64,000 nucleotides of DNA from Escherichia coli (GTDB lineage Bacteria > Pseudomonadota > Gammaproteobacteria > Enterobacterales > Enterobacteriaceae), in the NCBI RefSeq assembly GCF_029227855.1, contig NZ_CP074356.1. One strand, 5' to 3'. The position numbers and the translations under genes are program-made. The stretch's first letter is position 1, and each line of letters begins with the position of its first letter. Under the pieces are notes generated by a model that was given only the letters and a program-made list of their open reading frames with translations, ran no database searches and had not been told where the DNA came from. Positions 1-13,091 of the stretch are shown one piece after another.

Positions 1-102
1 GACACTGCGCTGGATCGTCTGATGCAGGGTGCACCGGCACCGCTGGCTGCAGGTAACCCGGCATCTGATGCCGTTAACGATTTGCTGAACACACCAGTGT
101 AA
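1..102 (+). CDS. C-terminal end of head scaffolding/protease gene (lambda C/Nu3-like); 5' end lies outside the window
   Basis: Open frame from window start to TAA at 100-102; lies immediately upstream of D as in the lambda head operon; only 33 codons visible. Confidence 0.55.
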   Translation, partial: DTALDRLMQGAPAPLAAGNPASDAVNDLLNTPV

Positions 103-111
103 GGGATGTTT

Positions 112-444
112 ATGACGAGCAAAGAAACCTTTACCCATTACCAGCCGCTGGGCAACAGTGACCCGGCTCATACCGCAACCGCGCCAGGCGGATTGAGTGC
201 GAAAGCGCCTGCAATGACCCCGCTGATGCTGGACACCTCCACCCGTAAGCTGGTTGCGTGGGATGGCACCACCGACGGTGCTGCTGTCGGCATTCTTGCT
301 GTTGCTGCTGACCAGACCAGCACCACGCTGACGTTCTACAAGTCCGGCACGTTCCGTTATGAGGATGTGCTCTGGCCGGAGGCTGCCAGCGACGAGACGA
401 AAAAACGGACCGCGTTTGCCGGAACGGCAATCAGCATCGTTTAA
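112..444 (+). CDS. D: head decoration protein D (lambda gpD)
   Basis: ORF 106-444; product from ATG 112 begins [11 protein letters not shown] and matches lambda gpD over its length (110 aa). Confidence 0.93.
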
Positions 445-499
445 CCTTACCCTTCATCACTAAAGGCCGCCTGTGCGGCTTTTTTTACGGGATTTTTTT

Positions 500-775
500 A
501 TGTCGATGTACACAACCGCCCAGCTGCTGGCGGCAAATGAGCAGAAATTTAAGTTTGATCCGCTGTTTCTGCGTCTCTTTTTCCGTGAGAGCTATCCCTT
601 CACCACGGAGAAAGTCTATCTCTCACAAATTCCGGGGCTGGTAAACATGGCGCTGTACGTTTCGCCGATTGTTTCCGGTGAGGTTATCCGCTCCCGTGGC
701 GGCTCCACCTCTGAATTTACGCCGGGATATGTCAAGCCGAAGCACTTAGCATGGCTTTCTGAGGCTTTCGTGTAG
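500..775 (+). pseudogene. E: major capsid protein E, 5' fragment (first ~82 codons), interrupted at 735-744 by an inserted element
   Basis: From ATG 500 the product MSMYTTAQLLAANEQKF...GYVKPKH is lambda gpE N-terminus; after the core at 735-744 the frame continues into unrelated sequence and stops at 775. Confidence 0.92.
735..744. repeat. attL core / target-site direct repeat (AGCCGAAGCA)
   Basis: Identical 10-mer recurs at 11864-11873; prophage E sequence resumes exactly after the right copy. Confidence 0.85.
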
Positions 776-872
776 CTGCTGGTTTTTACACTTAATCTTT
801 TGATAATAAAGAATAAGTTTATCTGGCGCTTTCACTGAATTTTCCTCGTTATCTGTGTGTTGCAATCATCTC

Positions 873-892
873 TGTATTGCAGCTTGTATTGC
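873..892 (+). promoter_or_regulatory. tandem TGTATTGC motifs (TGTATTGCAGCTTGTATTGC), putative integrase arm-type binding sites overlapping the int 5' region
   Basis: Near-identical 20-mer (TGTATTGCAGCATGTATTGC) recurs at 11769-11788 just inside the other att core. Confidence 0.5.
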
Positions 893-907
893 TTTTTGGG
901 GCTAAAA

Positions 908-2143
908 ATGGCTGGCGAGAACAAACTGAGCGACAAAGCGCTTAAAGGATATCTGGGGAAACCCAGAGAAAAGCAGATCACCATTGCTGATGGAAAGGGG
1001 CTTTCTATTCGTGTGAGTACTAAAGGGGCTGTGAGCTTTGTTTTCTTCTACAGGTTAGCAGGTGGCCGGGCTGCTCCGGTCTGGCTAACGTTGGGTAAAT
1101 ATCCTGATATGTCACTCAAACAGGCAAGGGAAAAGCGCGACGAGTGCCGTGGTTGGTTGGCTGACAAACGTGATCCGCGTATCCAGATTAAGATTCAGGC
1201 TGAAGAACGCTTAAAGCCGGTCACAGTGGAGGATGCACTAAATTACTGGTATGAAAATTACTGTAAGGTGCGTCGTAAAACTCATGCTGTAACGCTTGGC
1301 AGATTTCGAAAGCATATCTTTCCCTATATCGGTCATTTGCCCGTAAATGACACTCACCTATATGAATAGCTGGACTGTTTTGACCGAATTAAACGTAATG
1401 CACCAGTTATGGCGGCGTATGTTTTTTCTGACACTAAATTAGCTCTTCGTTTTTGTCGGGTACGCCAGTACGCGACGTGTGATGCTTTAAAGGATTTGCG
1501 CATGAGTGATGTGGGGCAGATTGCAGGTAAGCGGGATCGGGTTCTGGATGAGGTCGAACTCGGCCAGCTCTGGAAGGCAATTTTTGTCGAGCCTGATTTA
1601 AAACTAATGTCTGAATACACGCGAAAAATGTTTGTGCTTTGTACAGTATTTGGATGTCGAATGAGTGAAGCCCGATTATCAGAATGGAGCGAATGGGATC
1701 TCGAAAGTTGGGTTTGGACTGTGCCAAAAGATCACTCAAAAACTGGTGTTGAAATCGTCAGACCAGTACCTGAAATTCTACGACAGTGGGTAACGGATGT
1801 TCACGAAGAGACAAAACATACTGGTTATGTGCTGGGAAGTCTGCGAATTAGAGAAAGCGTAAGCAAGATTGGGGGGAAAATCGGTAAACGTTTGGGCCAT
1901 GAAAAACAATGGTCACTACACGACCTTAGAAGAACGCTATCTACTCATCTAAGTGATCTCGGTGTTGAATTTTATGTAGTAGAACAACTGTTAGGCCATG
2001 CGCTACCTGGCGTGGCAGGTGTTTACAACCGGAGTAAGTTTATGGCTAAAAAACTGGATGCTCTGGAACTCTGGACTACATATCTCAATAGCATCGCAGC
2101 TGCTGATTCAAAAGTGACAATCCTCAAACAAAAGGCTGGTTAG
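908..2143 (+). pseudogene. int: P4-type tyrosine integrase interrupted by an in-frame amber codon (TAG at 1367-1369)
   Basis: ORFs 857-1369 and 1409-2143 are in the same frame, separated by one TAG; N-terminal arm-binding region (MAGENKLSDKALKGYLGK...) and C-terminal catalytic region with HDLRRT, LLGHA and VYNRS (Tyr) motifs. Confidence 0.85.
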
Positions 2144-2144
2144 C

Positions 2145-2375
2145 ATGAAAAAAATGGCAATTGTTGATAAAAAGGGTCTGGAGTACATTCCTAACATTGA
2201 CCGAATGATCCGTGAGAAAGAATGTCGGGAGCTAACTACTCTTGCGAACAGCACACGCTGGAAGCTGGAGAAGGAAGGAAAATTTCCTAAGCGGATCAAG
2301 ATTGGTTCCACTGCTGTTGCATATCGTCTTTCAGAAGTGCAGGCATGGATTCGAGGTGAGTGGGAAACAACTTAA
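2145..2375 (+). CDS. alpA: AlpA-family HTH transcriptional regulator / excisionase-like protein
   Basis: 76-aa product with AlpA-type HTH (RIKIGSTAVAYRLSEVQAWI); immediately downstream of int as in P4-like and PICI elements. Confidence 0.8.
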   Translation: MKKMAIVDKKGLEYIPNIDRMIREKECRELTTLANSTRWKLEKEGKFPKRIKIGSTAVAYRLSEVQAWIRGEWETT

Positions 2376-2382
2376 CTATTAG

Positions 2383-3213
2383 GTGGGCATTGTGGCTATA
2401 TTTCATTATACAGATCTTTTTGGTTTGAAAGGTATATTAGACTCTAATTCTTTATGGGCTACAAACATATATTTCTTAAATGATAAAGAGGAGTCTAACC
2501 ATGGATGTGAATGCTTTCGAAATACAATTAAAATAGTTGATGACAATATCATTCCAAAAGATAAGAAAACTATTTTGCTCAAGTCTCTTGACATGTATGA
2601 GAAAGGGAGGTTACAAAAAGAAAAAGGGATTGATAAACATGTTTATAGCATCTCTTTTTGTAAGGAAAACGATAAGTTAAGTCAGTGGAGAGGTTACGGA
2701 AATAAACAGGGTGTTTGCATTGAGTTTGATGCGGATGAACTTGTGAGCTTTTCTCAAAATATTTATTTAAATTGTGTTGCACATGATGTTATATATTCAA
2801 ATAATAACGATATTACTAAGATGAGTAAGGAGTTGGGAGAGTTTTTTTCTTGTAATGGTATTAATATTAAAGAAATGAATGATCATTTTGTAACAATGGT
2901 CTCTACGTATCAATTTATATCTAAATACATCCCATTTTTTAAACATCCTAGTTTTATCGAAGAGAATGAATTTAGATTGGTATTTACTCCGTGGATGCAA
3001 ATGCCAGATGTGCACTTCAGAATAAATAATAATGGGATCATCCCTTATATCATCATTGATAATAAAGATAATAGAAAGTTACCAATTAAAAGCATTACAA
3101 TTGGCCCGACAAACGATTATGATTTCATTGAGGCTGGTATAAAAATGTTCTTGGATTCAAGAGGATTTAGTTCTGTGGAAATTAAATCCTCATCAATTCC
3201 ATTCAGGGGGTAA
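2383..3213 (+). CDS. uncharacterised 276-aa protein, AT-rich accessory gene (candidate defence/abortive-infection cargo)
   Basis: Long ORF with GTG start at 2383 (alternative GTG at 2392 has AGGTGG 5 nt upstream); visibly AT-rich relative to int and primase; no confident family match by eye. Confidence 0.6.
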   Translation: MGIVAIFHYTDLFGLKGILDSNSLWATNIYFLNDKEESNHGCECFRNTIKIVDDNIIPKDKKTILLKSLDMYEKGRLQKEKGIDKHVYSISFCKENDKLSQWRGYGNKQGVCIEFDADELVSFSQNIYLNCVAHDVIYSNNNDITKMSKELGEFFSCNGINIKEMNDHFVTMVSTYQFISKYIPFFKHPSFIEENEFRLVFTPWMQMPDVHFRINNNGIIPYIIIDNKDNRKLPIKSITIGPTNDYDFIEAGIKMFLDSRGFSSVEIKSSSIPFRG

Positions 3214-3344
3214 GGATTAACACTTTTAATCTATGATATTATAAAAATGGTGGATAAAGGCGACCAGAATTGGTCGCCAATGTGAGTATATAGTTAGCCT
3301 TAATCAGAATACGAGGTTATCGCCTGATAGGCAATGTGAACAGT

Positions 3345-3701
3345 TCAATATTTAGGTGGTTCAACAAGAGCGTTTATCATTGCTCTCAAATTATCGCGAA
3401 CACTTATCCAAGTCTGTTCTGCTCGTTCTAACTCATCAGTGTACAACTTTAATGTTTTATCTATGCCATATGTGGCTATTAAATTTATAGCTTCTTGTAA
3501 TTTTTCAGGATTATTCCTTCTTGGGGGAGTGAATATACCACGGATTTTTCCGGTAATTAAAGCTTTACGGTGTCTACATAGAATACCTTTACTTCCTGCT
3601 GGACAATTACAAGTCATGATTAGCGAGCCAGAATCGTTTGATACAGTGACTATGTATACATCCAAACTACTGCTACTTGTTGCGAAGAATTCGTATTTCA
3701 T
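3345..3701 (-). CDS. SWIM-type zinc-finger protein (118 aa)
   Basis: CxC...CxH motif (CNCPAGSKGILCRH); AAGGAG Shine-Dalgarno about 8 nt upstream of the ATG; downstream of the Arc-like gene on the same strand. Confidence 0.6.
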   Translation of the reverse strand: MKYEFFATSSSSLDVYIVTVSNDSGSLIMTCNCPAGSKGILCRHRKALITGKIRGIFTPPRRNNPEKLQEAINLIATYGIDKTLKLYTDELERAEQTWISVRDNLRAMINALVEPPKY

Positions 3702-3728
3702 GTGTTAGCTCCTTGACTTCAATTATTC

Positions 3729-3920
3729 TTATCCTTTTGGTTCAATACCGCGCCGTAGCAGCTCTTTGCGCCCTAATTCTTTAAGCCAGTTGGCTAGGCT
3801 TATGCCGTCGCTCTGCGCTTCTTTGTCGAATTGCTCTTTTAGCTCTGGAGAAATTCGCATTCTGAATTGTGGAGATTGCCCATCACCCTTAGGACTTTTA
3901 TCGCGTTTGATCGTTGACAA
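3729..3920 (-). CDS. Arc/MetJ-type ribbon-helix-helix DNA-binding protein (candidate satellite repressor)
   Basis: C-terminal part ...PQFRMRISPELKEQFDKEAQSDGISLANWLKELGRKEL resembles Arc repressor; start uncertain (TTG at 3920 with AGGTGG upstream, or ATG further in; ORF track gives 3729-4043); divergent from the + strand operon that starts at 4060. Confidence 0.55.
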   Translation of the reverse strand: MSTIKRDKSPKGDGQSPQFRMRISPELKEQFDKEAQSDGISLANWLKELGRKELLRRGIEPKG

Positions 3921-4059
3921 GTGACCACCTATTGAATTAGCCTTTTCATTGTTAGGTGACCACCTTAACACGGGGGCACTTAAAAAAGCAAAGCCCGAAG
4001 GTGCTGGGAACACCAACGGGCTTCTAACCACCAACGATAGCAACAGTATCGAGGTAGCT

Positions 4060-4263
4060 ATGAGAAATCATACCACACACCCGCAAGGGCGGGACCCGCA
4101 CAACCTGAATAAATACATCTGGCGTTTTATCGCCTTGAGTACGGCACAACCGCGCATGATTACCATCGAGGCCATCAGCGAACAGGAAGCCCGCCAGCAA
4201 TCCCCAACTGGCTGCGTGATGGTATTCGCCGCCCGTATTCGTCAGGAGGTGTGCCGTGCTTAA
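4060..4263 (+). CDS. hypothetical small protein (first gene of operon leading to primase)
   Basis: ATG 4060 preceded by GAGG; in frame with ORF 3949-4263. Confidence 0.45.
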   Translation: MRNHTTHPQGRDPHNLNKYIWRFIALSTAQPRMITIEAISEQEARQQSPTGCVMVFAARIRQEVCRA

Positions 4264-4441
4264 AACCTTCCGTGTATTTGCCCGAGCTGTTAACCCACTG
4301 GGCCACACAATTGGTATCACTCAGAACGTGAAGGCTGTTAATGTTCAGACGGCTATTGCTGCGGTGAGAAGCGAATCATCAGAATATGGCTTATCACAAG
4401 TCATTATTTCAGCAGTGTATGAATTAAAAGAGGTGCATTAA
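4256..4441 (+). CDS. hypothetical small protein (61 aa)
   Basis: ORF whose start overlaps the upstream stop (translational coupling). Confidence 0.4.
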   Translation: MLKTFRVFARAVNPLGHTIGITQNVKAVNVQTAIAAVRSESSEYGLSQVIISAVYELKEVH

Positions 4442-4632
4442 TGCAGGAAATCACATTACACGAAGCCGCTGAACGTGCGCACCAGACAGAAATTATTTGC
4501 CGCCTTCTTGAGGTATACCCGAACAAAATTACAGATGCTGATATATCCGCGCTGGCGAGCCTACTGGCGCGCCTTTCGGGAAGTGTCGCTAGTTTCCTGA
4601 TTGAGGAAGAAAGTAAGCTGGTGGGGGATTAA
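4441..4632 (+). CDS. hypothetical small protein (63 aa)
   Basis: ATG overlaps upstream stop (TAATG); co-directional operon. Confidence 0.45.
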   Translation: MQEITLHEAAERAHQTEIICRLLEVYPNKITDADISALASLLARLSGSVASFLIEEESKLVGD

Positions 4633-4854
4633 ATGAATACAGAACGGGAAGTCTTTTTTAAATTGTTAGCATGTGCAGAAAGTTCATTAACTTTAAATAA
4701 TTCAGCAAAAGCAATATTAAATATGTGGCTTGATTGCATAAATGACAATGAAGATGCAAATATTGCTTATGGCCTGTTGTCACTTATTGATGAATCAGCA
4801 GAAAAACTCAATGACGCAATAAATAGTGCCCTGCTATCAAATAAGTCGAGTTAA
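4633..4854 (+). CDS. hypothetical small protein (73 aa), AT-rich
   Basis: ORF directly abutting the upstream stop. Confidence 0.4.
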   Translation: MNTEREVFFKLLACAESSLTLNNSAKAILNMWLDCINDNEDANIAYGLLSLIDESAEKLNDAINSALLSNKSS

Positions 4855-4871
4855 GTCGAGGAATAAATAAT

Positions 4872-5171
4872 ATGGAAATGAAAAATTCTGGCTTTATTGC
4901 CAGCGGCCCCGCTCGGCCTGAATTTATGAACGGCGATATTTACCGCGATAAATACGGCGGCACGGTAACGATTAAAGGCGTGGCAGAACGGCGCATCACT
5001 TACCGCCGTGAGGGGTATAGCTATGACTGCGTGATGCCTGTTTATCAGTTCCGGCGTGATTTTTCCCTGGTATATGCCGCACCCCGCAGTAAGCCCATCA
5101 GCAGGGAAAAAGCGCGGGGAAACATCCAGAAAATGAAAAGCATGATTAACGCATTCAGGGGCAAAAAATGA
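4872..5171 (+). CDS. hypothetical protein (99 aa)
   Basis: ORF whose stop overlaps the primase start. Confidence 0.45.
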   Translation: MEMKNSGFIASGPARPEFMNGDIYRDKYGGTVTIKGVAERRITYRREGYSYDCVMPVYQFRRDFSLVYAAPRSKPISREKARGNIQKMKSMINAFRGKK

Positions 5172-6919
5172 AACTGGCACCGAACTTAAAAAAACAGCCA
5201 CGCGACAGACTGACAGAGGTAATCATCTTTGCAGGTAGTGATGCGTGGAGCCATGCGAAAGAGTGGCGGGAATGGGCGGGTAAACATATTGCCGCCGACG
5301 ATGTGCCGCCTGTCGTGCTGGCTGATGAGCAACTGAAAAATATCACCGATTACCGGATCATTGATGAAGATCGTCAGTGTGTGCGTGTTTACCGCGCAGG
5401 ACATATCACAGAGCACAGCATGACGCAGATTGTTACGTTACTGGCTGTGGCTGGAGTGAAGACCGTACACGAATACGCGGGGATTACTGACACCAGCCCA
5501 GTGGATTTATCCGAGCAGTTGCCGCGACTCAAAGAGGAATGCGAGCGTGGGGAAAGTCTGGTGCTTAATCTTCCGACGAAGCAAAAGGCGCAACTTTCAC
5601 AGATGGCAGACAGTGAACGTGCACAACTACTTGCCGATCGCTTTGATGGTGTGTGTGTTCATGCAGAAAGTGAAATCGTCCACGTATGGCGCGGCGGGGT
5701 ATGGTGTCCGGTCAGCACAATGGAGCTGAGCCGCGAAATGGTGGCGATCTATTCAGAGCACAGGGCCACGTTCAGCAAACGTGTAATCAATAACGCCGTG
5801 GAAGCGTTAAAAGTTATTGCCGACCCCATGGGGGAGCCGTCCGGTGATTTGCTACCGTTCACTAATGGTGTGCTTAACCTGAAAACGGGGGAATTTTCTC
5901 CGCACTCGCCGGAGCACTGGAGCACCACGCACAATGGCATTGAGTACACGCCACCAGTAGCAGGGGAAAACATCCGCGATAATGCGCCAAATTTCCATAA
6001 ATGGCTTGAACATGCTGCAAGAAAAGACCCGCGCAAGATGATGCGTATATGTGCCGCGTTATACATGATTATGGCGAACCGCTACGACTGGCAGATGTTC
6101 ATTGAGGCCACCGGAGACGGGGGAAGCGGTAAGAGTACATTTACCCATATTGCCACCCTGCTTGCTGGCAAACAGAACACCGTAAGCGCGGAGATGACAT
6201 CACTCGATGATGCAGGAGGGCGCGCGCAGGTTGTCGGGAGTCGTCTTATCGTCCTTGCCGATCAGCCGAAATATACGGGGGAAGGCACGGGCATCAAGAA
6301 AATCACGGGAGGCGATCCCGTTGAAATTAACCCGAAATATGAGAAGCGATTCACGACGATAATAAGGGCGGTGGTACTGGCAACCAATAACGACCCGATG
6401 ATCTTTACCGAACGGGCCGGAGGTGTGTCACGCCGTCGGGTGATTTTCCGGTTCGACAACATTGTAAGGGAGGACGAAAAAGACAAGGAATTACCGGAAA
6501 AGATAGCGGCAGAAATCCCCGTAATTATCCGCCGCTTGCTGGCTAATTTTGCTGACCCTGAAAAGGCACGGGCTTTATTACTGGAACAGCGTGACGGTGA
6601 TGAAGCTCTGGCAATAAAGCAGCAAACGGATCCGGTTGTTGAGCTTTGCGCGGCGCTGGAGTTTCTGGAGGAAGCTCGTGGGCTAATGATGGGCGGTGGT
6701 GGTGACACCGTGAAGTACACGACCAGAAACAGCCTTTACCGTGTCTATATGGCCTTCATGGCATACACAGGAAAGGGGAAATGTTTGAGCGTGAATGAGT
6801 TCGGAAAGGCTATGAGGTCAGCGGCGAAAGTTTACGGATATGAATATATTACGCGAAAAGTTAAGGGAGTCACGCAGACCAACGCAACGACTACTGATGA
6901 TTGCGATGCGTTTTTATAA
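5168..6919 (+). CDS. P4-alpha-type replication primase/helicase (phage/plasmid primase, P4 family C-terminal domain)
   Basis: 583-aa product with Walker A GDGGSGKST and surrounding blocks typical of P4-family primase C-terminal domains; followed by iterons. Confidence 0.85.
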   Translation: MKLAPNLKKQPRDRLTEVIIFAGSDAWSHAKEWREWAGKHIAADDVPPVVLADEQLKNITDYRIIDEDRQCVRVYRAGHITEHSMTQIVTLLAVAGVKTVHEYAGITDTSPVDLSEQLPRLKEECERGESLVLNLPTKQKAQLSQMADSERAQLLADRFDGVCVHAESEIVHVWRGGVWCPVSTMELSREMVAIYSEHRATFSKRVINNAVEALKVIADPMGEPSGDLLPFTNGVLNLKTGEFSPHSPEHWSTTHNGIEYTPPVAGENIRDNAPNFHKWLEHAARKDPRKMMRICAALYMIMANRYDWQMFIEATGDGGSGKSTFTHIATLLAGKQNTVSAEMTSLDDAGGRAQVVGSRLIVLADQPKYTGEGTGIKKITGGDPVEINPKYEKRFTTIIRAVVLATNNDPMIFTERAGGVSRRRVIFRFDNIVREDEKDKELPEKIAAEIPVIIRRLLANFADPEKARALLLEQRDGDEALAIKQQTDPVVELCAALEFLEEARGLMMGGGGDTVKYTTRNSLYRVYMAFMAYTGKGKCLSVNEFGKAMRSAAKVYGYEYITRKVKGVTQTNATTTDDCDAFL

Positions 6920-6933
6920 AAAATGGCAATGGT

Positions 6934-7161
6934 TATCTACCTTGTCTACCTGACTGAAAGAAAATACTTTTATTTCAATGTATTAATGCAGGTAGATAAC
7001 TATTTTTCACTGTCTACCTGTTATCTACCTTATCTACCCATTTTTGTAGACAGGTAAGGAGACGGGTAGAGATGAGGTAGACAGCTATTTGGGGCTGTCT
7101 ACCTCCCTGAAACCCGCGCCATTACTGGCCTGATAACTAATCAGGTAGACAAGGTAGACAA
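6934..7161. repeat. replication-origin iterons (about 12 copies of T[GT]TCTACC / GGTAGA[CT]A in both orientations)
   Basis: Dense cluster of the 8-9-bp motif in the non-coding stretch immediately downstream of the primase gene. Confidence 0.75.
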
Positions 7162-7208
7162 GGTGGTGGTGCACAAAAAACTTTTTAAACGAGGGGGTAA
7201 AAATAAAA

Positions 7209-7466
7209 ATGCACACTTCAGGAAAACTGAACAAACATATAAAGCCACATTACCGCGCCCTTGATATGGCTGAACACTGGCTAAGGGTGGCGATTAAGGC
7301 AATAGACCGCAACGCCGGGGAAGGATACGCGAAAGCACATCCCGAACTGATAAGCGCATTCATGACAACGGCGGCTGCAAACTTTGCCACGCTGACCGAA
7401 CGGGAGATTGCTGAAGCGGAGGAAGTGACAACAATCAATATTAAGTCCGGAGAGCAGGCAGCATGA
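7209..7466 (+). CDS. hypothetical protein (85 aa)
   Basis: ORF whose stop overlaps the ssb start (ATGA). Confidence 0.45.
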   Translation: MHTSGKLNKHIKPHYRALDMAEHWLRVAIKAIDRNAGEGYAKAHPELISAFMTTAAANFATLTEREIAEAEEVTTINIKSGEQAA

Positions 7467-7912
7467 CGGCGCAAATATCAGTTTACGGGCGGTTGGTGGA
7501 CGACCCGCAGACAAAACAGACCAGCAAGGGCACCCCCATGACGCTGGCGCGTATGGCGGTATCACTGCCCTGCAGTCAGTCGGATGACGGTCTGGCGACG
7601 TTGTGGTTATCTGTCCTGGCGTTTGGCAGACAAGCCGACGCGCTGGCAAAGCATCACAAAGGCGAACTCCTGAGCGTGGCGGGTAACATGCAGATGAGCC
7701 AGTGGACTGGACAGAACGGCGAAACGCGGCAGGGCTGGCAGGTTATCGCAGACAGCGTAATCAGTGCGCGATCGGTGCGACCGGGCGGCAAAAAAGGCCA
7801 ACAGGGGCAGGCTACTGACGCACTGAACAGAGCAAAACAACAGGCAGATCAGCAAGGAAGCCAGCCACCAGAGGGAGATAATGAGCAATGGGGAGATGAT
7901 ATCCCGTTTTAA
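7463..7912 (+). CDS. ssb: single-stranded DNA-binding protein (SSB)
   Basis: 149-aa product with OB-fold-like N-terminal region and acidic C-terminal tail ending DDIPF. Confidence 0.75.
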   Translation: MTAQISVYGRLVDDPQTKQTSKGTPMTLARMAVSLPCSQSDDGLATLWLSVLAFGRQADALAKHHKGELLSVAGNMQMSQWTGQNGETRQGWQVIADSVISARSVRPGGKKGQQGQATDALNRAKQQADQQGSQPPEGDNEQWGDDIPF

Positions 7913-8128
7913 ATATTGCCAATAAAAAAAGCCGGAAAAAATAAATTTTCCGGCATGCTACATAAATCCCGACCAAAGGGAGTGAAGATATTAACACTAA
8001 TTGTCCGCACTGAAGTTGTCACACCAAAACTTTATACAACATTGCACTCGGTTGCATGTGTTCGCATGACAAATATCGGTGATAGCATATATCCACAATT
8101 ATTTTTAATGAATGCAAAGAGGATGCGT

Positions 8129-9169
8129 ATGGTTGATTTATATTCGCCTACTCAGCTTGTACAGGTAGTTAATGCTGTAGATGTACAAAAACAACTAAAT
8201 GCGTTGTTTACCAGTTTGTTTTTTACTCGCTCGGTAATGTTTGAATCGCGCGATATTATTCTTGATACAATCGACGATCCAAATATCCCAATTGCAGCGT
8301 TTTGTTCTCCTATGGTGGGTAGTAAAGTTTCACGTGACGAAGGGTACGAATCAAAAACAATTCGTCCAGGCTATATGAAGCCGAAAAGCAGCATTGATCC
8401 AAATAAGTTAGCTGTGCGCCCTGCTGGTGTGTCACCTGAGCAATACAATGCTTTTGGGGCGCGTAATATTAAAGTTAAACAGGCGATTGTAAATCAGGCT
8501 AAAGCTATTCGTGCACGTATTGAATGGCTTGCTGTTCAGGCAATCACAACGGGGAAAAATATCATTGAGGGCGATGGTATTGAACGTTATGAGCTGGACT
8601 GGAATATAAAACCACAAAATATCATCACTCAGTCTGGCGGTACTGAGTGGTCAGGTAAGGATAAAGAAACTTTTGATCCAAATGATGATATTGAGAGCTA
8701 CGCAGAATTTAGTGAGGGCGTCACTAATATCATCATTATGGGTGGTAATGTATGGAAGAAATACCGTTCATTCAGAGCGATAAAAGAGGCTTTGGATACC
8801 CGTCGTGGTTCTAATTCCGAACTGGAAACGGCCCTTAAAGACCTTGGTGATTCGGTGAGTTTTAAAGGGTATATGGGCGATGTTGCGATTGTTGTTTACA
8901 GCGGGCGTTATACCGACGAGGACGGAACAGAAAAACATTTCCTTGATCCTGATTTGATGGTGCTTGGCAATACGGCTCTTCAGGGGATTGTCGCCTATGG
9001 CGGTATTCAGGATCCGGAGCTAATCCGAATGGGGCTGACTAAAGCCGAACTTGCACCGAAAAACTATATTGTGCCTGGTGATCCGGCTATTGAATATGTG
9101 CAGACACATTCAGCACCACAGCCAATACCGGCCCGCATCAATCGTTTTGTTACCGTTCGCATTGGCTAA
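8129..9169 (+). CDS. major capsid protein paralogue (lambda gpE-like) encoded by the satellite
   Basis: ORF 7916-9169; from ATG 8129 (GAGG upstream) the product aligns collinearly with the prophage's own E, sharing blocks ITQSGGTEWS, DTRRGS.SELETA.KDLG and GDVAIVVYSG. Confidence 0.85.
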   Translation: MVDLYSPTQLVQVVNAVDVQKQLNALFTSLFFTRSVMFESRDIILDTIDDPNIPIAAFCSPMVGSKVSRDEGYESKTIRPGYMKPKSSIDPNKLAVRPAGVSPEQYNAFGARNIKVKQAIVNQAKAIRARIEWLAVQAITTGKNIIEGDGIERYELDWNIKPQNIITQSGGTEWSGKDKETFDPNDDIESYAEFSEGVTNIIIMGGNVWKKYRSFRAIKEALDTRRGSNSELETALKDLGDSVSFKGYMGDVAIVVYSGRYTDEDGTEKHFLDPDLMVLGNTALQGIVAYGGIQDPELIRMGLTKAELAPKNYIVPGDPAIEYVQTHSAPQPIPARINRFVTVRIG

Positions 9170-9178
9170 GGGGGAGCA

Positions 9179-9520
9179 ATGGCTACTCATTACACTGAAC
9201 TCATGGCTGGCACTGAAGCACTGGTGACTACGCTGGGGATATTTTCAGCTAATAAAGGGGTAATTCCTGCATTTACGCCACTGATGCAGGAAGATGCAAC
9301 AGGTGCACTGGTGGTATGGGATGGTTCGAGCGTAGGTAAAGCGGTTTATGTTTCCGCTGTACAAATCGACACCGCGAAAAAAACACAGGCTCAGGTCTAT
9401 AAGACAGGTGTCTTAAATGTTGATGCTCTGAACTGGCCTGAGTCTGTTAAAGAACTGTCAGTAAAGGTTGCAGCGTTTGTTGGCTCAGGTATTTCTGTTC
9501 AGCCGCTGGCTCGTGTGTAA
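9179..9520 (+). CDS. head decoration protein paralogue (lambda gpD-like) encoded by the satellite
   Basis: 113-aa product alignable with prophage D at 112-444 (LVVWDGSSVGKAV versus [13 protein letters not shown]; shared C-terminal G.AISV region). Confidence 0.75.
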   Translation: MATHYTELMAGTEALVTTLGIFSANKGVIPAFTPLMQEDATGALVVWDGSSVGKAVYVSAVQIDTAKKTQAQVYKTGVLNVDALNWPESVKELSVKVAAFVGSGISVQPLARV

Positions 9521-9531
9521 AGGGGGATACA

Positions 9532-9915
9532 ATGCAGAATGATTACAATGACCTTAAGCCAATTGCCGAAATGATGTACCCGAATCAAGCTGTAGAGGAA
9601 TTAAAAGCTATCGCTGACAAAATGTGTTTAAGCGAGCGCCTTGTTGATATGAATCAGGTGATGGAAATTACAACCCTGAGTCGTCGTACACTGCTAAACC
9701 TTGAGGCTAGTGGAGAGTTCCCGGAGCGTGTGCAGGTTACGGAAGGGCGTAAGGCCTGGTATTTAAGTGAAGTGATCGACTGGATAAATAATATTCCTCG
9801 CGCTTCTGAATATTGCCGCGTACCTGTCCCAAAAAAGCCAGATGCGGCGCTATGCCTCAAGATTGAGCGTGTACGCCGCAATGCACGGGATGGTCGCTAT
9901 AAGCTGATTGGTTGA
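9532..9915 (+). CDS. AlpA-family HTH protein adjacent to cos (candidate packaging-redirection or regulatory protein)
   Basis: 127-aa product with AlpA-type HTH (ITTLSRRTLLNLEASGEFPERVQV) and a basic C-terminal extension; immediately upstream of the cos site. Confidence 0.55.
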   Translation: MQNDYNDLKPIAEMMYPNQAVEELKAIADKMCLSERLVDMNQVMEITTLSRRTLLNLEASGEFPERVQVTEGRKAWYLSEVIDWINNIPRASEYCRVPVPKKPDAALCLKIERVRRNARDGRYKLIG

Positions 9916-9923
9916 TGAAATTA

Positions 9924-9950
9924 GGACCCGCTCTGGCTGGCGGGTCCTTT
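9924..9950 (+). terminator. hairpin terminator-like element after gene 9532-9915
   Basis: GGACCCG...CGGGTCC stem followed by TTT. Confidence 0.4.
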
Positions 9951-10145
9951 CCGGCGATCCAGAACGTTACGGGGCGTCAGGCGCGCAGTTTTTCGCTATT
10001 TGTGAAAATTTTCCTGTTTAAGGCGTTTCCGTTCTTCTTCGCCGTAACTTAATGTTTTTATTAAAAACACCCCCTAAAAAGAAAGGAAACGACAGGTGCT
10101 AAAAACAGGCTTTTTGGCCTCTGTCGTTTCCTTTCTCTGGTTTTG
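9940..10145. other. lambda-type cos site (cosN-equivalent at about 9972-9983; cosB R3-I1-R2-R1 to about 10140)
   Basis: Stretch TTTTCGCTATTTGTGAAAATTTTCCTGTTTAAGGCGTTTCCGTTCTTCTTCG...AAAGAAAGGAAACGACAGGTGCT...GGCTTTTTGGCCTCTGTCGTTTCCTTTCTCTG closely matches the left end of phage lambda (cosB) from memory; cosN 12-mer reads GGGCGTCAGGCG instead of GGGCGGCGACCT; no Nu1 gene follows. Confidence 0.8.
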
Positions 10146-10513
10146 TTGCCATCCGTCGCGGTCTATCACCAGAAAAAATCTTATCCCTGAGTTGAATCAG
10201 GCCCTATTCAGAAGCGGCCAATAACGCGCCGCTAGCTTCACTTCATAGTTATGGCCTACTTCTGCGCCATTGCAATTGCTTTATGCGCCTTGATGGTGGA
10301 ATATAGAGCAAGCAGTTTGCGAATAACAAAGTTTCATATGTTTTTTGCTGTGTGGCTAGACAACTTTACAGCAGAGTTTTGTGTCAGTTCTTTATGTGTG
10401 CAAGCAAGCTTGAGGGGGAATTACTTCTGGCTGTATCTTTGCTTAAGAACAGCAATAATTTAATCATAAGGAAATGTATATAAGCCTGATTAAATTTCAG
10501 GCTTATTGAAATG

Positions 10514-11656
10514 TTAACTCCTTATTAGAGAGTAAATTCCATCCTCTTTAAGGAAGTCTATTACTTCAAAGAATGAGATAAAGAATTCCCAAGAACCAAA
10601 AGCATATGCATGAATTTCGTAAGGTGCAAAATGGAATCTAAATCCATCACTATTTATTGTGAACGAGTCTAAGTTACTATCCATGATACCCGTTGCAAAC
10701 GTACTAATGTCGTCCTCACTTGGTTTTTCACCAGTTTTCTCCCAAAATTCACGAGCTGATTCAGAGATTATTTTTTGTTTTATCTTATTAATCGCTTCTT
10801 GCTCTTTCCCTTCGGTAAATACATCCCATAAACTAAATTTGTATGCGTAGTCATCCTTGGTTATTACGAAATTACTAGTTTCAAAATGACTGTTAGGGTG
10901 TGCTGCTCCCGCACCATACCAATGTACGGAATGAAGGATGCTCATGACATTTTCGTTACAGTATGAGATGTTATAACTTTCATTATAGGAACTAGTGTAA
11001 GTGTGTTTATATTCTTCATCCCAATATGGTGTTCCTGGCCATAGTGATGTGCGTTCAGAAAAAATATGTAAAGCCGCTTTTCCTGAAAAGTAATCACTAA
11101 TGAGTTTTGCTGATTTCGGTAATGTATGGCTTTCAATTCTTGGATATGCTATTTCAATTTCATGCCCTGGGATCTTGTTATATTCTTCCTTGAAAACCTC
11201 GCTGCTAAAGTTAAATGGCCCATAAGTGATACCTTGAGATATTTCAAGTTTTTGTTGCGATGCTGCTAATCTTAAAGATCTAGATAAAATGTCCCAACCA
11301 TCATTTCTCTTAAAATCAATGAATTGGAGCTTGCTTGATATGTAGGCGGGTACTTCGCAATCATCAATAAGTAATGGTATCACGAACACATCATCTGGTT
11401 TGTAATACTTTAGTTTATCAATGGCGTCATTTATTTCGCGGCGAATATAACCATTTTTCTGAGTGCTCACTTTGCTAAGGATAAGGATTATCAAGTTTGA
11501 ATTAGCGAAGTTTTTTTGGATTTCATAATCCCAGTTTACGCCAGCGGGTATATCTTTTACATCCATCCAAGGGGAATATCCTCCACTTTTTAGCCTTTCA
11601 TAGATTTCTTCAGTTATCGTTTCATCTTCTTTTGCATGAGCAAGAAAAATTTTCAT
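10514..11656 (-). CDS. TIR-domain protein with C-terminal domain of unknown function (candidate anti-phage defence gene)
   Basis: 380-aa product; N-terminal about 135 aa looks like a TIR domain (MKIFLAHAKEDE...ILILSKVS...REINDAIDKL); C-terminal about 240 aa unassigned (contains HWYGAGAAHP motif); AT-rich; last gene before attR. Confidence 0.7.
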   Translation of the reverse strand: MKIFLAHAKEDETITEEIYERLKSGGYSPWMDVKDIPAGVNWDYEIQKNFANSNLIILILSKVSTQKNGYIRREINDAIDKLKYYKPDDVFVIPLLIDDCEVPAYISSKLQFIDFKRNDGWDILSRSLRLAASQQKLEISQGITYGPFNFSSEVFKEEYNKIPGHEIEIAYPRIESHTLPKSAKLISDYFSGKAALHIFSERTSLWPGTPYWDEEYKHTYTSSYNESYNISYCNENVMSILHSVHWYGAGAAHPNSHFETSNFVITKDDYAYKFSLWDVFTEGKEQEAINKIKQKIISESAREFWEKTGEKPSEDDISTFATGIMDSNLDSFTINSDGFRFHFAPYEIHAYAFGSWEFFISFFEVIDFLKEDGIYSLIRS

Positions 11657-11768
11657 TGAATATTCCTTTATAATTTAACTAATTAAGTGAAGGAGGCTTT
11701 ACTTGGCTGTGTTAGAAAAAATTCGGTTTGTTTTTTGTACGATGCCAAGAAGGCTTTTCCCTAACCAT

Positions 11769-11788
11769 GTATTGCAGCATGTATTGCT
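11769..11788 (+). promoter_or_regulatory. tandem TGTATTGC motifs (putative integrase arm-type sites, right arm)
   Basis: TGTATTGCAGCATGTATTGC, 19/20 identical to 873-892. Confidence 0.5.
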
Positions 11789-11863
11789 ACGTAATTCTGC
11801 ACCCTCTCATTTATAAAATAAATCTCTGTTAAATCAAGTATCTTTTTTCTATTTGACTCATGT

Positions 11864-11873
11864 AGCCGAAGCA
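11864..11873. repeat. attR core / target-site direct repeat (AGCCGAAGCA)
   Basis: Identical to 735-744; E sequence (HEVNPQMTL...) resumes from this point. Confidence 0.85.
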
Positions 11874-12699
11874 TGAGGTGAATCCGCAGATGACCCTGCG
11901 TCGCCTGCCGGATGAAGATCCGCAGAATCTGGCGGACCCGGCTTACCGCCGCCGTCGCATCATTATGCAGAACATGCGTGACGAAGAGCTGGCCATTGCC
12001 CAGGTCGAAGAGATGCAGGCAGTTTCTGCCGTGCTTAAGGGCAAATACACCATGACCGGTGAAGCCTTCGATCCGGTTGAGGTGGATATGGGCCGCAGTG
12101 AGGCGAATAACATCACGCAGTCCGGCGGCACGGAGTGGAGCAAGCGTGACAAGTCCACGTATGACCCGACCGACGATATCGAAGCCTACGCGCTGAACGC
12201 CAGCGGAGTGGTGAATATCATCGTGTTTGATCCGAAAGGCTGGGCGCTGTTCCGTTCCTTCAAAGCCGTCAAGGAGAAGCTGGATACTCGTCGCGGCTCT
12301 CATTCCGAGCTGGAGACAGCGGTGAAAGACCTGGGCAAAGCGGTGTCCTACAAGGGGATGTATGGCGATGTGGCCATCGTCGTGTATTCCGGACAGTACG
12401 TGGAAAACGGCGTCAAAAAGAACTTCCTGCCGGACAACACGATGGTGCTGGGGAACACTCAGGCACGCGGTCTGCGCACCTATGGCTGCATTCAGGATGC
12501 GGACGCACAGCGCGAAGGCATTAACTCCTCTGCCCGTTACCCGAAAAACTGGGTGACCACCGGCGATCCGGCGCGTGAGTTCACCATGATTCAGTCAGCA
12601 CCGCTGATGCTGCTGGCTGACCCTGATGAGTTCGTGTCCGTACAACTGGCGCAATCGTGGCCCTTCGGGGCCATTTTCTCTCTGTGGAGGAGTCCATGA
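11864..12699 (+). pseudogene. E: major capsid protein E, 3' fragment (about 260 codons), with the lambda stop position read as CAA
   Basis: Product ...EVNPQMTLRRLPDEDPQ...DEFVSVQLA is lambda gpE from about residue 83; 500-744 plus 11874-12654 equals 1026 nt, the lambda E length; frame runs on 15 codons to TGA at 12697-12699. Confidence 0.9.
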
Positions 12700-13091
12700 C
12701 GAAAGATGAACTGATTGTCCGTCTCCGGTCGCTGGGTGAGCAACTGAACCGTGATGTCAGCCTGACGGGGACGAAAGAAGAACTGGCGCTCCGTGTGGCA
12801 GAGCTGGAAGAGGAGCTTGATGACACGGATGACGCTGCCGGTCAGGATACCCCTCTCAGACCGGAAAATGCGCTGACCGGACATGAAAATGAGGTGGTAT
12901 CAGAGCAGCCGGATACCATGATTGATACGGCTGCTCTGGTCACGGTCGTGGCACTGGTGACGCTGCATACTGATGCACTTCACGCCACGCGGGATGAACC
13001 TGTGGCATTTGTGCTGCCGGGAACGGCGTTTCGTGTCTCTGTCGGTGTGGCAGCCGAAATGACAGAACGTGGCCTGGCCAGAATGCAATAA
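12696..13091 (+). CDS. FI: DNA-packaging/head assembly protein FI
   Basis: Product MTKDELIVRLRSLGEQLNRD... matches lambda gpFI. Confidence 0.9.
   Translation: MTKDELIVRLRSLGEQLNRDVSLTGTKEELALRVAELEEELDDTDDAAGQDTPLRPENALTGHENEVVSEQPDTMIDTAALVTVVALVTLHTDALHATRDEPVAFVLPGTAFRVSVGVAAEMTERGLARMQ

Follow-up and report, generated by a model that had tools for sequence, protein, structure and literature searches.

Results

Five small genes precede a primase in a coupled series

The 64,000-nucleotide stretch of Escherichia coli DNA that we analyzed (contig NZ_CP074356.1 of assembly GCF_029227855.1; hereafter, the window) contains five small open reading frames (ORFs) on the plus strand at positions 4060-5171, directly upstream of a primase gene. 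The block is an ordinary member of a known, widespread satellite module, not a new kind of system, and it lies in a phage-inducible chromosomal island (PICI) that is itself embedded in a lambdoid prophage.

Along the strand, ORF1 (4060-4263, ATG start, 67 aa) encodes an Icd-like protein of a short, “Kil-like” form, and ORF2 (4256-4441, GTG start, 61 aa) encodes a beta-beta-alpha-beta protein. ORF3 (4441-4632, ATG start, 63 aa) is followed by ORF4 (4633-4854, ATG start, 73 aa, 32% G+C), a variable cassette gene, and by ORF5 (4872-5171, ATG start, 99 aa), a member of the DUF4222/RgdR family. The final gene of the chain, also on the plus strand, encodes a primase-helicase of the P4/D5 type (5168-6919, 583 aa). 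From ORF1 through the primase, the junctions measure -8, -1, 0, +17, and -4 nt: an 8-nt overlap joins ORF1 and ORF2, a TAATG overlap joins ORF2 and ORF3, and a 4-nt ATGA overlap joins ORF5 to the primase start. Shine-Dalgarno-like purine runs stand before the starts (in order, GAGGT, AGGAGG, AGAGGT, GGTGGGGG, and GAGGA), and a promoter and terminator scan found neither a sigma-70-like promoter nor an intrinsic terminator on the plus strand within the block. As read from the DNA, the six cistrons are arranged for a chain of coupled translation that ends in the primase. The initial annotation of five small ORFs, overlapping or abutting one another directly upstream of the primase, is borne out by these lengths and junctions. 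E. coli VCSW7 is 100% identical over positions 3700-5200, and its RefSeq annotation has the same five coding sequences. G+C content across the block ranges from 55% in ORF1 down to the 32% of ORF4, a spread that indicates a mosaic origin.

The five ORFs are conserved coding genes

The five ORFs are real coding genes, well beyond chance. All of them match PHROG families end to end (E values from 1e-28 to 3e-45). The ratios of nonsynonymous to synonymous substitution rates (dN/dS), computed pairwise by the Nei-Gojobori method with homologues from seven other E. coli loci at 45-97% nucleotide identity, range from 0.08 to 0.70 and are mostly 0.1-0.5; values of 0.5-0.7 occur only for ORF4 pairs, which are saturated, with about 25% amino acid identity. 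Among homologues, the codon counts of ORF2, ORF3, and ORF5 are held at exactly 61, 63, and 99 (186, 192, and 300 nt), and homologous loci retain the overlaps of 8, 1, and 4 nt. The earlier proposal that these are translationally coupled early genes of a satellite was to be abandoned if relatives lacked conservation and coding signal. Since both are present, this objection fails and the proposal stands.

To describe the spread of the block, we drew on IMG/VR contigs that carry an invariant 19-mer of the leader described below (at least 120 contigs with the exact sequence) and traced the chain of ORFs that follows it in the 97 parsable loci, a survey biased toward elements having the same leader. 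In these loci, the first gene is nearly always Icd-like, often with two such genes in tandem, and in 77 of the 80 loci with a complete replicase the gene directly upstream of it is DUF4222. About seven small families, those of ORF2, ORF3, and ORF4 among them, supply the genes between these two ends. The same order (Icd-like, small genes, DUF4222, replicase) is found in EcCICFT073, in O157 OI-51, and in further E. coli loci. Of 5426 complete E. coli genomes, megablast found parts of the region in 1817 and ORF2 through ORF4 together in 129. An identical ORF2 protein appears in 4022 indexed blocks of a public collection. When phage records were searched, megablast of the region gave no match, and tblastn with ORF1 and ORF5 against 50,697 phage records matched one small, satellite-sized record for each query. 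The genes are therefore essentially absent from true phages.

ORF1 belongs to the Icd-like family

ORF1 scores 67.8 bits on the NCBIfam model NF033153 (Icd-like), for which the cut-off is 25, with E = 6e-19, its residues 19-62 aligning to positions 1-48 of the 48-position model, and it matches phrog_6196 with E = 3e-45. Its dN/dS values lie between 0.22 and 0.50. The same NCBIfam model matches residues 85-132 of the P4 “cI ORF137” (the eta/kil frame) with E = 8e-21.

The Icd-like frame is open for at least 200 codons (200-640) upstream of the conserved ATG in 61 of the 97 IMG/VR loci. The one such extended frame that was examined, in locus L122, starts with a Bro-N domain, as does P4 eta, and in locus L004 the extended frame runs antisense over an annotated YlcI/YnfO gene. 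These open upstream frames in relatives resemble P4 eta/kil, in which Kil is the short C-terminal form of Eta (PMC10111431). The frame in the window stays open for just 37 codons before the ORF1 ATG, so that ORF1 represents the short, Kil-like form. The long N-terminal extension is not a general annotation artifact, as loci L134 and L139 carry a genuine 121-aa, two-domain form. We also considered ORF1 and ORF2 as paralogues, given that both have the same predicted strand-strand-helix-strand order, but hhalign assigned the pair a probability of 1.8%, and the idea was rejected. A sequence search of the PDB with ORF1 and ORF5 returned nothing meaningful.

ORF2, ORF3, and ORF4 are variable middle genes

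The predicted strand-strand-helix-strand fold of ORF2 has a mean confidence (predicted local distance difference test) of 93.6, and its family extends slightly beyond E. coli, with 22 members among the 1.84 billion representatives searched. ORF2 and ORF3 are 95% and 73% identical, respectively, to their O157 copies. ORF3 matches phrog_1478 (E = 3e-34) with a dN/dS of about 0.2; a member of its family is present in EcCICFT073, and all 42 homologues found are Escherichia or Shigella proteins labeled “hypothetical”. ORF4 matches phrog_2196 (E = 1e-28), and its position in relatives is taken by proteins that are 25-32% identical or by other small families. Searches of hidden Markov model (HMM) libraries gave no family beyond PHROGs for ORF3 and ORF4. 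ORF2 through ORF4 are thus far unnamed proteins.

ORF5 is a DUF4222 protein coupled to the replicase

ORF5 matches PF13973 (DUF4222) with 83.2 bits against a cut-off of 27 (E = 9e-24). Together with the NF033153 match of ORF1, this corrects the initial annotation, in which none of the five proteins could be assigned. With the protein that O157 OI-51 encodes at the RgdR (ECs1581) position, ORF5 shares 74% identity, and both are 99 aa long. Its residues 18-22 read F-M-N-G-D, with NGD in place of the RGD of RgdR (residues 20-22). The AlphaFold2 model predicts a core that forms a five-strand Tudor/KOW/SH3-like barrel, followed by a C-terminal helix. DUF4222 was also tried as a homologue of P4 Cnr and rejected (hhalign probability of 0.05%). 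RgdR itself, also of 99 aa, activates LEE1 and type III secretion, represses motility, and binds DNA non-specifically; its homologues include c1493 in CFT073 and ECED1_1787 in ED1a, and Flockhart et al. report orthologues in strains without the enterocyte effacement locus (LEE), such as uropathogenic and commensal strains (PMC3378721).

The adjoining primase-helicase contains D5_N (E = 1e-15) and DUF5906 (E = 6e-10) matches and aligns to phrog_864 (E = 3e-161), and its TIGR01613 score of 103.5 bits falls just short of the 108.7 cut-off. Relatives have three types of replicase (P4-type primase, DUF927, and RepA helicase), each preceded by DUF4222. Across the three types, the N-terminal 105 aa of the replicase (5168-5482 in the window) are 44-60% identical, compared with about 20% for the remainders. 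This N-terminal domain of about 105 aa has no Pfam match.

The upstream region contains a putative promoter, a candidate repressor gene, and a structured leader

A putative operon promoter lies at 3914-3965 on the plus strand, with a perfect -35 element (TTGACA) at 3914-3919, an 18-nt spacer, and TAGCCT at 3938-3943. Two operator-like repeats, GTGACCACCT, at 3921-3930 and 3955-3964, flank its -10 element. In relatives, the -35 element, its distance, and the repeat positions are conserved and the -10 elements are better, while the repeat sequence varies by lineage.

A candidate repressor gene of the ribbon-helix-helix (RHH) type runs divergently (3729-3920, minus strand, 63 aa, TTG start, AGGTGG Shine-Dalgarno sequence) and overlaps the -35 of the promoter. 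The protein matches the Arc-like repressors of phrog_228 (E = 5e-6) and Pfam HicB (E = 5e-4), and it is homologous to the 64-aa “HicB family antitoxin” of locus L007. The divergent small gene differs by relative: it is RHH/HicB-like in the window and L007, and YlcI/YnfO in L004, L005, and CFT073. In RefSeq, the RHH gene is unannotated, and a plus-strand pseudogene is placed there.

A structured 5' leader occupies 3991-4059 on the plus strand. It comprises a two-tier hairpin (3991-4023), the invariant 19-mer TCTAACCACCAACGATAGC (4023-4041), and a 5-bp stem in which CGATA (4035-4039) pairs with TATCG (4047-4051), abutting the Shine-Dalgarno sequence. Compared over 19 variants, the hairpin has 16 predicted pairs, of which 7 show two-sided compensatory changes; it is followed by an invariant stretch of about 40 nt that ends in the 5-bp stem. 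An Rfam scan of positions 1-13000 at E ≤ 1 detected no immunity RNA of the P4 CI, P1 C4, or isrK type, and the leader has no Rfam match. The RHH gene, the repeats, and the leader suggest a repressor-operator switch combined with control at the RNA level. To our knowledge, Gram-negative PICIs have been described as lacking a known master repressor, and the upstream region could be a repressor switch in this group.

The block lies in a PICI embedded in a prophage capsid gene

The island is about 11 kb long (approximately 746-11957) and interrupts a lambdoid prophage in its lambda E-like major capsid gene, co-oriented with that gene and the late genes. The split capsid gene consists of an N-terminal fragment (500-745) and a C-terminal fragment (11958-12746). 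Upstream of it, the prophage has its terminase, portal, protease, and decoration genes, and downstream its FI and tail genes, each on the plus strand. This is the arrangement by which Tommasini et al. (2023) recognize a helper-embedded PICI, namely, a split capsid gene with late genes on both sides. The helper-embedded PICI of the 11capE type was described by Tommasini, Mageeney, and Williams, and a related 11capE element was shown to excise (PMC10111431); the embedded-in-capsid context is hence already known.

The island also has the features by which Fillol-Salom et al. (2018) define Gram-negative PICIs: co-oriented int (908-2143) and alpA (2145-2375) genes at one end, its own primase, and a size within 10-20 kb. 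Its late-type genes are E- and D-like only, and genes for lysis or tails are lacking. The RefSeq annotation of the island contains neither sid nor psu nor delta, and the island does not have the features of a P4-like satellite.

Between alpA and the operon lie genes for a DUF2971 protein (2383-3213, plus strand) and a SWIM zinc-finger protein (3345-3701, minus strand), which weakly match the PADLOC candidate systems PDC-S31 and PDC-S62; this slot differs in relatives. [quoted passage not shown] The HTH protein (9532-9915, 127 aa) is encoded just after the decoration gene, roughly at the position of RppA in EcCICFT073, but it does not resemble the protein that CFT073 has there and was rejected as its equivalent. 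The TIR-domain ORF (10514-11656, minus strand, 380 aa, N-terminal TIR) matches the Aga_TIR models of PADLOC (E = 2e-17) and is probably defense cargo at the far end of the island. Near this ORF, RefSeq annotates an “abortive infection family protein” in VCSW7, with other coordinates. Between the HTH and TIR genes, a long, near-perfect hairpin (10075-10142) has the look of a bidirectional terminator, and its Rfam matches are chance microRNAs.

Discussion

A proposed early operon for host arrest and satellite replication

On balance, and with somewhat better than even confidence, we read the five genes as the promoter-proximal half of a PICI early operon, the counterpart of P4 eta/kil - epsilon - orf151 - cnr - alpha, which would combine host arrest with satellite replication. 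In the resting island, the divergent RHH protein would bind the two operator repeats that straddle the promoter and keep the operon shut. A phage cue, either helper induction acting via AlpA or a foreign phage protein, would open the promoter and give a single mRNA with a structured leader. ORF1, as a short Kil/Icd-like protein, may then stop host growth or division, as its family membership and published homologues suggest. ORF2 through ORF4 would be exchangeable cassette proteins that tune or trigger this arrest. By its adjacency and predicted fold, ORF5, a Tudor/KOW-like barrel with a basic tail helix, may be a fixed partner of whichever replicase comes next and serve replication or transcription as a cofactor that binds DNA or polymerase. 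The net result would be host arrest together with satellite replication, which resembles abortive infection when there is no helper to package the satellite.

The published phenotypes closest to this reading come from a six-gene “programmed cell death” locus in strain ECOR61 (Silas et al.). There, growth is stopped by the phage accessory protein orf24 (AUE22229.1, 69 aa, encoded beside ocr), and Tn5 suppressor insertions fall in a 366-nt Icd-like gene and in adjacent genes of 186 nt (8-nt overlap) and 192 nt (1-nt overlap) on contig QOYT01000045.1; the phenotype required all six linked genes, including the primase, and the locus rebuilt in a laboratory strain had only a muted effect (bioRxiv 10.1101/2023.04.06.535777). 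The 186- and 192-nt genes are the size matches of ORF2 and ORF3, so that insertions which suppress arrest in them bear on the proposed cassette role. Loci L134 and L139 have the ECOR61 geometry (121, 61, 63, 73, 99, and 583 aa) and are 99.8% identical to positions 4116-6919 of the window, from which they differ only in their upstream region and in a first protein that carries an additional N-terminal domain. Judged by gene sizes, overlaps, and these loci, the window operon is probably equivalent to the ECOR61 locus. The same preprint describes a P4-dependent death triggered by P22 Abc1, with insertions in int, alpA, the Icd-like gene (eta), a 321-nt gene, and the primase, for which its authors suggest kil up-regulation (bioRxiv 10.1101/2023.04.06.535777). 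By analogy, these ECOR61 and P4 data lend indirect support to an inhibition of host growth or division by ORF1.

Several points weigh against this reading. In tblastn searches of the phage collection, ORF1 has no BLAST-level similarity to P1 Icd or P4, so that its family membership rests on the NCBIfam HMM. The proposed equivalence with ECOR61 draws on gene sizes, overlaps, and the near-identical loci of other strains. Polar effects on the primase could arise from the Tn5 hits as well as from the first-gene deletion, in which case the toxicity would come from runaway replication and not from ORF1. AlpA over-expression is known to cause uncontrolled EcCICFT073 replication and lower viability, for which pri is needed (PMC6092414), and this makes a polar effect on the primase a live alternative to direct ORF1 toxicity. 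As for the upstream region, the -10 of the putative promoter is weak (TAGCCT), and the promoter scanner did not report the 3914-3943 site, whose -10 matches at only three of six positions; the promoter call consequently rests on sequence reading and on the alignment of relatives. Finally, the RHH protein is a candidate repressor by virtue of its position and the operator-like repeats.

The block and the primase might instead form a dedicated abortive-infection or superinfection-exclusion system, in which ORF2 and ORF3 would sense a protein of the invading phage, the Icd-like protein would arrest or kill the host, and replication would be incidental. We consider this possible but clearly the less probable account. 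It would agree with the ECOR61 suppressor insertions in the Icd-like, 186-nt, and 192-nt genes, with middle genes that vary as defense cassettes do, and with an island that also holds the TIR-domain protein and other candidate defense cargo. However, the block stands before a replicase in every surveyed island, translationally coupled to it and outside the accessory hot spots, and none of the five ORFs matches any PADLOC-DB family at E ≤ 0.01. The requirement for the primase in ECOR61 suggests that replication is part of the toxicity, and the same experiments that favor a defense system include insertions that may be polar and a reconstitution that was muted.

Small early genes of satellites may also interfere with the helper or inhibit host defense, as P4 epsilon derepresses P2 and in keeping with the clustering of anti-defense genes in early regions, and the initial annotation had guessed at such a role for these genes. 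We regard it as unlikely. The guess finds no direct support: the five ORFs have no sequence similarity to epsilon or to known anti-defense families, the PADLOC search is negative, and published work on homologues leads in other directions. The fold resemblances fall short of the eL20 match and are of a kind that is generic among folds of 60 aa. In EcCICFT073, the gene to which lambda interference was mapped is rppA, which lies downstream of the capsid gene and whose deletion fully restored plaquing; only genes downstream of ori were tested individually for interference there (PMC6739421). Because rppA accounts for the lambda interference, the guess is partly contradicted in CFT073. Because the helper derepressor epsilon occupies the equivalent position in P4, helper manipulation could, by analogy, still be a function of ORF2 through ORF4.

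That ORF5, and perhaps others, are morons which regulate host virulence and motility as RgdR does in enterohemorrhagic E. coli, with their place in the operon incidental, is very unlikely: RgdR does activate LEE1 and type III secretion and repress motility, and OI-51 deletion reduces sheep colonization (PMC3378721), but these phenotypes come mostly from plasmid expression, DUF4222 adjoins the replicase in nearly all surveyed loci and has orthologues in strains that lack LEE, and the window protein carries NGD at the RGD site, where an engineered R20N change in RgdR lowered the activation of type III secretion (PMC3378721).

Within the reading of the block as an early operon, we tentatively propose, as a conjecture to be held loosely, that DUF4222 may be a Tudor/KOW-like cofactor that docks on the N-terminal domain common to the three replicase types and links them to DNA or RNA polymerase, making it a functional analogue of P4 Cnr, and that an unrecognized immunity switch may lie ahead of the operon, formed by an RHH repressor specific to the lineage, operator repeats that match it, and the covarying leader hairpin. 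If true, the cofactor role would also explain the promoter-unspecific effects of RgdR on host transcription. The block is among the most widespread “hypothetical” gene sets of E. coli, and its placement gives three unnamed proteins a concrete frame, namely, a Kil-like/accessory/replicase-cofactor operon of PICI satellites. It also ties two literatures, that on RgdR as a virulence regulator and that on phage-triggered cell death in ECOR61, to the biology of satellite induction.

Comparison with known systems

P1 Icd, the namesake of the NCBIfam model matched by ORF1, is encoded in the immI operon (c4 - icd - ant), where a small first cistron is translationally coupled to the next gene. The window differs from P1 in that tblastn with ORF1 matched no P1-like record at E ≤ 0.01, the Rfam scan gave no C4 RNA, and no ant homologue follows.

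ORF5 and RgdR are alike in a conserved core at residues 20-68 and in their position before the replicase. They differ at residue 20, which is N in ORF5 and R in RgdR, and a LEE-related role is not to be assumed for ORF5 in this strain. The ECOR61 locus combines an Icd-like gene with a DNA primase, with matching sizes and overlaps; its first gene is the 121-aa form with an extra N-terminal domain, compared with 67 aa for ORF1 of the window, where the upstream region is also different.

The P4 operon has the order vis, the eta/kil Icd-like frame (with the cI RNA), epsilon, orf151, cnr, and alpha. It resembles the window in its upstream AlpA-type regulator (vis), an Icd-like first cistron, 8-nt overlaps, and a small gene before the alpha primase. 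Unlike P4, the window has the short Kil-like form only, its own putative promoter, and a protein (RHH) as candidate repressor, and P4 epsilon, orf151, and cnr have no homologues in it.

The nearest relatives of the island are the PICIs EcCICFT073 and EcCIEDL933 (OI-51/CP-933C). In EcCICFT073, an Icd-like gene is followed by four small genes, DUF4222 (c1493), and the primase; in OI-51/CP-933C of O157:H7, the order is Icd-like, 61 aa, 63 aa, 80 aa, DUF4222 (ECs1581), and a DUF927 replicase. Further E. coli loci have the Icd-like and DUF4222 ends with a RepA-type helicase. CFT073 differs from the window in having two Icd-like genes and other middle cassettes and in lacking ORF2, although it carries members of the ORF3, ORF4, Icd-like, and DUF4222 families. 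The insertion sites differ as well, since the window island lies within a lambdoid capsid gene and the model PICIs lie next to roxA. Nevertheless, the island of the window and these two PICIs are alike in int, alpA, a divergent small DNA-binding gene, the Icd-like gene, the small genes, DUF4222, the replicase, SSB, and the capsid and decoration genes.

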